From assembly GCF_003334765.1 (NCBI RefSeq), contig NZ_QOWT01000076.1: 1,956 nt of DNA. One strand, given 5' to 3'. Source of the DNA: Escherichia coli. GTDB lineage: Bacteria; Pseudomonadota; Gammaproteobacteria; Enterobacterales; Enterobacteriaceae. Both the position numbers and the translations under genes were made by a program. Positions 1-1,956 of this stretch are shown one piece after another. Within the stretch, counting starts at the first letter, position 1; every line of letters begins with the position of its first letter. The notes under the pieces are model-generated. The model saw nothing but the letters and a program-made list of their open reading frames with translations, searched no databases and was not told where the DNA came from.

Positions 1-533
1 TTCTGGCAACCCATCGCATCAGTTGTGATGATTTTTCCTTTAATATCCAGCATGTTAAGAAGTTCAGGGATAGCTGTGATCTCATTGGATTTCTTATCCG
101 TCTTGATCTGCCCGATGACCAGACTGTGCATTGTTGAGAACGCACTAATGACATGAATCGCTCCCCTGCGGCGACTCTTGTCATAAGAGTGCCGGAGCGT
201 TTTTCCATCAATTGCAATGACGTCTTTATCATTTGATGAATGGCAATCACGCATCCAGTTAATAAAGCACTCGTGAAATTTTGCAGGACTGATACAGGAT
301 ACAACTCTGGCAATAGTATCGTGAACAGGAATACCATTTTCAAAATCACCATATTGCTTCAAGAAATCGAGATGTGTTTCCCCGAAATCCTCTATATCTT
401 CCCAACTTTCTGCACCAGAAATAACGGCAAAAATAGTCAATAGTAGGATGCCTGACAATTTATGCTCTACTTTCCAGGCTTATCTGTAATCGGGAATAAT
501 AGAAATATGTTCCATCAATTTTTTAAGTTCCAT
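1..533 (-). pseudogene. ISAs1-family (H-repeat-associated type) transposase, N-terminal ~177 codons, 3'-partial (runs off the window start); interrupted by an in-frame TAA at codon 18
   Basis: Hand translation of the minus strand from the ATG at 531-533 gives MELKKLMEHISIIPDYR, then TAA (plus 480-482), then in the same frame [159 protein letters not shown], open to position 3. The pattern IxDxR...K.EHxLxxILLL..xAVISGA.xWxxIExFG ... GIPxHDTxxRV is the DDE_Tnp_1-associated N-terminal domain of ISAs1-family transposases. No minus-strand stop occurs in this frame between 479 and 1. Confidence 0.85.
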
Positions 534-538
534 TTGTT

Positions 539-544
539 CACCTT
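539..544 (-). promoter_or_regulatory. Ribosome-binding site for the transposase gene
   Basis: Minus-strand AAGGTG (plus-strand cacctt at 539-544), 5 nt upstream of the ATG at 533. Confidence 0.5.
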
Positions 545-758
545 ATTTATGTAAGGAGTATTTGATCATGTATAAGCTATGAAAAACAGCTTTAGGTAAT
601 AAGGAATATCTCAATTTTTAAACATAAAATGCGAATTATTTAGTACAAAAAAGTAGCGTTACGTGATCTTTCCCTGCAAATGGAACGCAAAATAAACACC
701 TATTCCATGAGTTATATAATTTTTCACAATGATTAATTTGTTTTCTCAGGAAGAGATT

Positions 759-1328
759 TTATTTCTCTTCACTACGAATTAGTTCATGCTGTATCTTTAT
801 TAAACATTCGTAAGACTCATTTTTGTTCGGGAGATGTGCTGTCATTCGAGCATAAGTTGGTTTCTCATCTTTAAAATATTTTACCATGATTGAATTATCA
901 AGGACTGCCAACAACTGAACTGGATCACTGCTCTTTTTTTGATAGATACCCGCTCTTATATAACTTCTAAACCGATCGCCGAGAAACGCCGTTTTTTCTG
1001 CTGTATTTATCAACTCCTGCAACGTTCCTTTGATGGCATGATTTTCATTAAGGCGTAGTGACCCGACGCGAATTAAGAGTCTCGCCCCGCTTGGTGTGAA
1101 TTTATTATTTTTACATGTACCCAGTTCTGTTTGCCAATAATACTCACCGATGTCCTCATTCTGATACCATCTCCACATGGCTTTATTATTTAAGACAGGA
1201 AACGCGGAAAAAATAGTACCCTTAGCGAAAATAGTAAAACAATCATGATCTTTAGCTTGTATTTCGCAATCAGCTATAACACCAAAACTAACAAATATCA
1301 TCAGCAAAAAGAACAAAACTCTTTTCAT
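759..1328 (-). CDS. Putative cognate immunity protein for the Rhs CT toxin; Sec-exported periplasmic protein (189 aa precursor)
   Basis: Track ORF 759..1328 (-). Its ATG (1326-1328) overlaps the toxin TGA (1325-1327) as ATGA. N-terminus [19 protein letters not shown]|DCEIQ has a basic n-region, a hydrophobic h-region and a V-I-A signal peptidase I site. An SD-like AGAGGAA lies 6 nt upstream. The gene is AT-rich (hand-sampled stretches about 28-43% GC). Position immediately 3' of a polymorphic toxin CT is the canonical immunity position. Confidence 0.75.
1272..1328 (-). other. Predicted Sec signal peptide of the immunity protein (19 aa, cleavage after VIA)
   Basis: [19 protein letters not shown] followed by DCEIQ. 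There is no lipobox: the residue before Cys is Asp, not G/A/S, so signal peptidase II processing is unlikely. Confidence 0.65.
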
Positions 1329-1956
1329 TTTCTTATTCCTCTCGATGTTCTCTGTTTCATCTTAGCTAAAATTTCACCCAAATCATCTATCCCTGCTGTT
1401 GCTGGCCCATCGGGTTTATTAATGTCTGGGAATAAATAGGGTTCTGCACAAGTATATCCTGGTGGTAATTGAGTTGTTGGCCAATTTGTCTGTGGCAGGT
1501 AATCACTTGCTGTCTTTGTATCCATCCCTGGATACTGGGAATCATCCTGTGGCGTACAAGTCAGATTTGGTTTTACCCACTTCCTGCAATACAGTGTGTA
1601 GTCGTAAGGGCTTAATGCTCTGAAGAATGTTTTGAAAACATTAGGCGCACTACTGGCCTGGTCAATAGGATATGGCAGTCTTAATTGTTTCGCTATGTCC
1701 GGCAATTTACTTGGATCGGGCGTAGGCGGTTTGTTGGGTCTCGCTCCATATCCGCCATTATTTAAGTGTCCATATTTTGATGCCAGTCCCATTGAATCTA
1801 TATACTGAACCGGATTCAGCGGATACTGATAAAAATTCCATCCCCCCTTCAGCCCAATCGGATCCTGAGTGATATACCTCCCCTGCAGCGGGTCATAATA
1901 GCGGTGGCGGTTGTAATACAGGCCGGACTCCTCATCATACTGCTGCCCCGGCAGGC
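1325..1956 (-). CDS. Rhs family (YD-repeat) protein, C-terminal fragment: end of the conserved core plus variable CT toxin domain; 5'-partial, continues beyond the window end
   Basis: The minus-strand frame of the 155-aa track ORF stays open from its Met (1790-1792) up to position 1954 with no stop. Hand translation of 1793-1954 gives [54 protein letters not shown], followed by [14 protein letters not shown]... This matches the hallmark end of the Rhs repeat-associated core ([12 protein letters not shown]...QDPIGL.GG.N.YQY..NP....D..GL). The Met at 1792 is therefore internal, not the true start. Stop TGA at 1325-1327. Confidence 0.9.
1328..1783 (-). other. Variable Rhs C-terminal toxin domain (152 aa) of unknown activity
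   Basis: Sequence after the GL junction: [152 protein letters not shown]. It sits exactly where Rhs CT toxins sit and is followed by a coupled small ORF. I see no HExxH, HxxxH or other canonical nuclease/peptidase motif, and the single His precedes all three Cys. Confidence 0.7.
1335..1341 (-). promoter_or_regulatory. Ribosome-binding site for the immunity gene
   Basis: Minus-strand AGAGGAA (plus-strand ttcctct at 1335-1341), 6 nt upstream of the ATG at 1328, located inside the 3' end of the toxin coding sequence. Confidence 0.5.
1784..1813 (-). other. Rhs core/CT junction motif (PxxxxDPxGL-type; here [10 protein letters not shown]), the predicted autoproteolytic demarcation site
   Basis: Ten codons, P(1811-1813) V Q Y I D S M G L(1784-1786), with the same spacing as the PxxxxDPxGL motif that ends Rhs cores, except that Ser replaces the Pro after Asp. 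Confidence 0.75.
1814..1956 (-). other. Conserved Rhs core terminal region (partial), relatively GC-rich
   Basis: Encodes ...[43 protein letters not shown]. Hand-counted GC for 1793-1956 is about 52% (86/164), clearly higher than the downstream CT and immunity sequence. Confidence 0.85.

Follow-up and report, generated by a model that had tools for sequence, protein, structure and literature searches.

The stretch of Escherichia coli DNA analysed here, hereafter the window (1956 bp), comes from the E. coli RhsC locus. At least 16 complete E. coli chromosomes match it over its whole length with 100% identity, and at least 80% of it is found, in one place, in about 3000 of 5426 E. coli genomes. 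Flanking sequence was taken from ML35, which is identical to the window (L001; the minus strand of the window corresponds to L001 9001-10956). In ML35 the window sequence lies inside the RhsC island, between ybfA and ybgA, as expected of an E. coli RhsC element, and the gene order is ybfA-rhsC-ybfB-ybfO-ybfC-H-repeats-ybgA. The arrangement of the window is thus of the ML35 type, and K-12 has the same locus. (ML35 also carries an IS5-like insertion of the ISKpn26 family between rhsC and ybfB, at L001 6550-7530, which K-12 lacks.) In genomes without RhsC, the ybfA terminator is joined to a point 50 bp before the start of ybgA, which leaves about 37 bp between the end of the H-repeat array and the island's right edge. 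What the window shows is therefore the distal end of RhsC, an E. coli toxin locus in which an H-rpt array has long been described, and its arrangement is ordinary and already known. A search of both strands for Rfam families (E<=1) found none. The genes of the window are all on the minus strand, in the order Rhs fragment, ybfC, AT-rich spacer and transposase gene, and its features are as follows (window coordinates, with the basis of each assignment in brackets).

1784..1956, minus strand: C-terminal end of the Rhs core, with the DPIGL motif (NCBIfam RHS_core and Rhs_assc_core, residues 1-57)
1325..1783, minus strand: variable C-terminal tip, presumed toxin domain, 152 aa plus stop (translation, family scans)
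1328..759, minus strand: ybfC, 189 aa, signal-peptide-like N-terminus, presumed immunity gene (open reading frame; role by position)
719..758, minus strand: conserved ybfC 3′ flank, about 40 bp (alignment, megablast, blastn-short)
677..718, minus strand: junction-specific segment of about 42 bp, too short to encode anything (k-mer searches)
676..666, minus strand: left terminal inverted repeat, CAGGGAAAGAT (start of the independent copies; 11 bp identical in eight copies)
534..665, minus strand: rest of the 143-nt untranslated leader (sequence)
521..536, no strand: inner arm of a 16-nt inverted repeat, covering the transposase start codon (repeat search, shuffle test)
1..533, minus strand: ISAs1-family transposase gene (ybfL in K-12), codons 1-177 of 378, running off the window edge (NCBIfam NF033564)

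The Rhs reading frame (1954..1325, minus strand) matches NCBIfam RHS_core over residues 1-57 with an E-value of 8e-32, and the core ends just past DPIGL. The organisation is that of RhsC, in that a core ending in the PxxxxDPxGL motif is followed by a variable tip and then by an overlapping small gene; the start of ybfC overlaps the Rhs stop in the sequence ATGA. From these positions we presume that the Rhs tip is a toxin and YbfC its immunity protein. Scans of YbfC and of the tip against Pfam and NCBIfam gave no family matches. The signal-peptide-like N-terminus of YbfC hints at a site of action in the periplasm.

The Rhs piece in the window lineage is an N-terminally truncated orphan, which RefSeq annotates as ‘missing N-terminus’ and which corresponds to the K-12 pseudogene ybfO. 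Full-length rhsC ends about 2.6-3 kb further upstream, and the tip in the window, which lies downstream of rhsC and ybfB, is distinct from the rhsC tip. In O157:H7, a ybfO-type tip and ybfC form the end of the full-length RhsC (L008 805-5570), and in E597 a full-length Rhs at RhsB ends in the same tip together with ybfC (L010 817-5570). The tip and ybfC of the window lineage are thus a displaced orphan pair. They resemble the orphan Rhs tips formed by C-terminal displacement (Jackson et al. 2009, PMC2935791), where, as in the window, a truncated core, a tip and a gene in the immunity position lie downstream of a full-length rhs gene with a different tip; the likeness extends to the fact that the window's tip ends a full-length gene in another lineage. 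The displacement model differs in being about toxin modules, and a term search of that paper's text found no mention of transposases or insertion sequences. An earlier note on this DNA, made from the letters of the window, had recognised a core, a C-terminal tip, an immunity gene and an ISAs1-family element in one orientation, and had likened them to the architecture of Rhs elements with H-repeats. All of these parts are present on the minus strand, and identity and synteny make the window E. coli RhsC itself. The succession of tip, ybfC and IS also stands, with the addition that the tip belongs to the truncated orphan ybfO and not to full-length rhsC.

We read positions 1-676 of the window (minus strand) as the first 676 bases of an H-repeat, an ISEc1 copy of the ISAs1 family that opens the distal H-repeat array of RhsC (probability about 0.93). 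The position of the left terminus follows from a comparison with seven other copies, namely those at K-12 RhsB (yhhI) and K-12 RhsE (ydcC), on three plasmids, and at RhsC of O157:H7 and of strain 48. Each independent copy starts with CAGGGAAAGAT and ends with ATCTTGCCCTG, except that the RhsC copy of the window lineage ends with ATCTTTCCCTG instead. Plasmid copies start to match at L001 10281-10282, that is, at window positions 676-675, and chromosomal copies at other loci start to match at L001 10281, or a few bases earlier by chance. Base 676 is therefore the first base of the element. Among the eight independent copies, mean pairwise identity rises from 0.27 over the 30 bp preceding the left end to 1.00 in the first 11 bp; it is 0.97 both over leader positions 31-140 and in the last 30 bp inside the right end, and it drops to 0.26 in the 30 bp beyond that end. 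The terminal repeats thus coincide with the loss of homology at both ends of the element.

The partner of the left repeat lies outside the window, 1290 bp away, at L001 11560-11570. There, ATCTTTCCCTG is a perfect inverse (11/11) of CAGGGAAAGAT, and an inverted-repeat finder extends the arms to 19 nt, with 17/19 matches (89%), at L001 10280-10298 and 11553-11571. The element of the window lineage accordingly runs from L001 10281 to 11570 and measures 1290 bp, and the seven other copies measure 1291 bp. These results bear out the expectations of the earlier note, which had placed the IS terminus somewhere within 534-758 and probably 100-150 bp upstream of the transposase ATG (the distance is 143 bp), and which had expected a matching inverted repeat to turn up at the other end once flanking sequence was at hand.

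Members of the ISAs1 family generate target duplications of 8-10 bp, as recorded in ISfinder. No exact flanking repeat (0 bp) was found at any of the nine copies examined for such a duplication. For the window copy, whose right end runs straight into another copy, this is a weak test; taken over all nine, the result means that none of them looks like a fresh simple insertion. (At the RhsB locus of E597, we noticed two 11-mers that resemble H-repeat termini, TAGGGAAAGAT and CAAGGCAAGAT, about 30 bp apart at L010 10371-10430, and this pair may be the remnant of an element.)

The gene inside the element supports the family assignment. Window codons 19-177 match NCBIfam NF033564, the ISAs1 family transposase model, with 218.7 bits and an E-value of 1e-64 (the cut-off is 70 bits), and intact yhhI matches the same model with an E-value of 1e-123. 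Copies that are near-identical, at 94-97% of nucleotides, include a plasmid copy annotated as ISEc1 in RefSeq. The element is thus of the ISAs1 family, as had been proposed from the letters of the window, and of no other IS family. In keeping with an ISAs1/ISEc1 element, it has a family transposase, terminal repeats at both ends and a length in the range of about 1.2-1.5 kb with one long gene; it lacks a flanking target-site duplication, and it lacks an intact transposase, since codon 18 is TAA (482..480, minus strand). Annotation likewise treats the gene as a pseudogene with an internal stop. Judging by this TAA, the transposase of the window is dead. The same codon is TAA in K-12 ybfL and CAA in ybfD, the second copy. 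Since the TAA is common to K-12 ybfL and the window, the mutation must be older than the split of the two arrangements. A published paper states that H-repeats have not been seen to transpose (PMC3032704), and full-text literature searches on H-rpt returned passing mentions only.

The transposase ATG is at position 533, 143 nt inside the element. On the minus strand, the leader contains the hexamers TTTTCA (585..580) and AATACT (562..557), separated by 17 nt, and a ribosome-binding site, AAGGTG (544..539). For the K-12 ybfC>ybfQ spacer, Shimada et al. list this hexamer pair as a constitutive RpoD promoter (PMC3946193), and because of this listing we consider that the element probably has its own promoter close to the transposase gene. 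A simple consensus promoter scan of positions 400-900 did not flag TTTTCA-17-AATACT, and its result was not above the shuffled expectation. A terminator scan of the same positions found none after ybfC.

At its right end, the first copy is fused directly to a second one, ybfD (L001 11571-12518), which begins at about element position 24. Roughly 23 nt are missing from the start of the ybfD copy, and with them the left terminal repeat; the copy also carries an internal deletion, and its right end, at L001 12518, is degenerate and reads AAATTTGTCCTG. Zhao and co-workers reportedly described H-rpt in 1993 as an IS-like element of 1291 bp in RhsB, of which RhsC has three partial copies in tandem, and this length is the copy length that we measured. 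The RhsC array of K-12, consisting of ybfQ, ybfL and ybfD, is the H-rptC array, reportedly described in the same paper (Zhao et al. 1993, J Bacteriol 175:2799). It shares with the window lineage its locus, the 82-bp spacer, the IS junction, the full copy whose codon 18 is TAA and whose right end is ATCTTTCCCTG, and the fused ybfD. What sets it apart is ybfQ, an extra 5′ fragment of 380 bp that separates the full copy from the spacer (the extra copy start is at L002 9303, and the full copy is at 9683). The full copy itself is alike in K-12 and the window lineage, in its leader variant, its TAA and its right-end variant.

The two copy starts in K-12 are identical over 45 bp. Because of this identity, we infer that the window arrangement is the K-12 arrangement minus ybfQ, and that it would have arisen by recombination between the two identical H-repeat starts. 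That the 380-bp difference would be a deletion rather than a gain is an argument from parsimony. We estimate, from spread sampling and identity bands, that the window type occurs in roughly 250-270 genomes and the K-12 type in roughly 2400-2500, making the latter about 10 times more common. In A65EC (L012 507-1270), the whole rhsC region has been lost, with endpoints just inside the left edge of the island and inside an H-repeat; we count this deletion as support for recombination and deletion at H-repeats.

The closest relatives at other loci are ISEc1 (H-rptB, yhhI, at RhsB) and H-rptE (ydcC). Like the window copy, they have the CAGGGAAAGAT start, a single 378-codon gene, a leader of 143-144 nt and no target duplication, and they are among the copies with 94-97% nucleotide identity. 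They differ in having an intact reading frame and a length of 1291 rather than 1290 bp. Their right end, ATCTTGCCCTG, is complementary to the left end at 10/11 positions, whereas that of the window copy is complementary at 11/11, and leader positions 12-24 read CATCAGAAGTTCA in the yhhI and ydcC copies but CACGTAACGCTA in the window copy. Like the ISAs1 family at large (the prototype being ISAs1 of Aeromonas salmonicida), the window copy has one gene, is about 1.3 kb long and is bounded by short terminal inverted repeats, although the flanking direct repeats of the family are absent here.

Mapping the terminus also divides the AT-rich spacer of 225 bp at 534-758, which has 25-33% G+C. The part that is not IS is the 82 bp from 677 to 758, and the IS and ybfC are in the same orientation. 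These 82 bp contain no ORF and no recognisable remnant of a toxin or immunity gene. They fall into two segments. The one next to ybfC, about 40 bp long, is common to the ybfC copies of O157:H7, strain 48 and E597, which belong to other lineages and include other Rhs loci, and in genomes without a directly adjoining H-repeat, megablast matches stop 38-43 bp past the ybfC stop. The other segment, of 42 bp, is specific to the junction. A 49-mer that spans it (window 677-725) is found in 2744 of the 5426 complete E. coli genomes, with a single occurrence in each, and in no other place. Among representatives of 100,044 GTDB species, a 25-mer within it was found in two contigs only, and both have the same junction. 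(These two contigs, at L013 1645-1669 and L014 1247-1271, are from MAGs binned as Candidatus Nanosynbacter and Flavobacterium psychrophilum, and have a ybfC-H-repeat junction of the K-12 type; they are most likely E. coli contamination of the bins.) We also considered whether the 42 bp could be an inverted, degenerate H-repeat start, and rejected this since identity past the first 16 nt is near the expectation for AT-rich sequence.

The earlier note had raised the question of whether the IS truncated a further orphan module at this place. It is conceivable, though on balance unlikely, that the arrival of the IS, or an adjacent deletion mediated by it, removed or cut such a toxin/immunity module after ybfC, leaving 677-718 as its stump. 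In O157:H7 and strain 48 (both at RhsC) and in E597 (at RhsB), the same ybfC flank of about 40 bp leads into an open stretch of 38 codons that lacks a start codon, and behind this comes a gene annotated as an NTF2-fold immunity gene, with a DUF6258 gene after that in two of these three loci. The O157 orphan stretch, scanned together with its neighbours against NCBIfam, gave no match. An H-repeat follows these orphan genes in O157:H7 and strain 48, and none is in view before the E597 sequence ends. The window lineage is without these genes, and its homology to the other lineages ends about 40 bp past ybfC, as a lost module would predict. However, the 42 bp have no match in the modules of O157, strain 48 or E597, elsewhere in the 5426 E. 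coli genomes, or elsewhere in the 100,044 species representatives. Moreover, the sequences that flank the H-repeats of O157 and strain 48 are different from, and unrelated to, the 42 bp, so that the junction seen in the window does not follow from an O157-like state by one deletion. The RhsC H-repeats of O157:H7 and strain 48 differ from those of the window lineage at both their left and their right junctions. These differences among lineages mean that the history of RhsC comprises several events, with no evident order or polarity. Of the earlier question, then, the part that stands is that 82 bp of spacer remain, free of any recognisable remnant, and that orphan immunity genes do occur at this place in other lineages.

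The 16 nt of the junction-specific segment next to the IS also take part in an inverted repeat. Its outer arm (677-692) abuts the IS end from the outside, and it matches the inner arm over the transposase start codon at 14/16 positions, making this the best inverted repeat in the window. In principle, pairing of the two arms could hide the start codon in transcripts that read through from ybfC, and so block activation of the transposase from outside, and in a variant of this reading the flank beside the window copy might have been shaped to do so. We regard such a function as very improbable. Among 1000 shuffles of the spacer, a 14/16 match arose anywhere in the first 200 nt in 15 and over the ATG in none, and in the predicted read-through RNA the two arms form a helix in both the minimum-energy and the centroid fold. 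Yet the test was picked after the repeat had been seen, which is why the repeat may be due to chance, and the overall fold is not unusual (z -1.57). In addition, the outer arm is flanking sequence and hence is present beside no other copy of the element, and the gene that would be silenced is already dead. The inverted repeat of 521-536 and 677-692 is probably a chance match.

The reading of 1-676 as the start of an H-repeat in the RhsC array suggests how this copy would behave at present. It is a DDE-type IS whose two ends are intact and whose one gene is interrupted near its start by a nonsense codon, so the copy would be unable to move on its own and would be a vertically inherited relic. 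Because both of its ends are intact, an intact transposase supplied by the yhhI or ydcC copies might still act on it. With the junction found in one place each in 2744 of 5426 genomes, the boundary between ybfC and the H-repeat appears to be fixed and clonally inherited in about half of E. coli. The main effect of the element today would be to offer repeated DNA at which homologous recombination and deletions can take place.

A more specific role along these lines is that the H-repeats serve as a working downstream homology anchor which, together with the upstream rhs core, lets tip/immunity cassettes be swapped among RhsB, RhsC and RhsE by double crossover. In that case, the H-repeats at the distal ends of Rhs loci would have been retained as a portable downstream block of homology for such swaps. 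Both the mechanism and the retention strike us as improbable, if somewhat less so than a function for the start-codon repeat. It is true that an H-repeat lies at the distal end, in rhs orientation, in all five of the Rhs-linked cases examined, that the ybfO-type tip, ybfC and the NTF2 gene are found together at RhsC in O157 and at RhsB in E597, and that the absence of a target duplication from every copy is as expected if recombination reshuffles the flanks. However, the element also occurs on plasmids, with no Rhs genes within a 600 bp flank on either side, and at one and the same locus the right flanks vary among lineages. Nor was any exchange with an H-repeat endpoint demonstrated, and the sample comprises five loci.

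For the window itself, the mapping amounts to a tidy annotation, with the IS end at 676, a 143-nt leader, 82 bp of true spacer and a dead transposase, and it matters little beyond that. Two points are of wider relevance, namely the lack of a target duplication at every copy examined and the differences among lineages in the H-repeat junctions at RhsC. Both fit the old view that H-repeats are recombination substrates and no longer active transposons.
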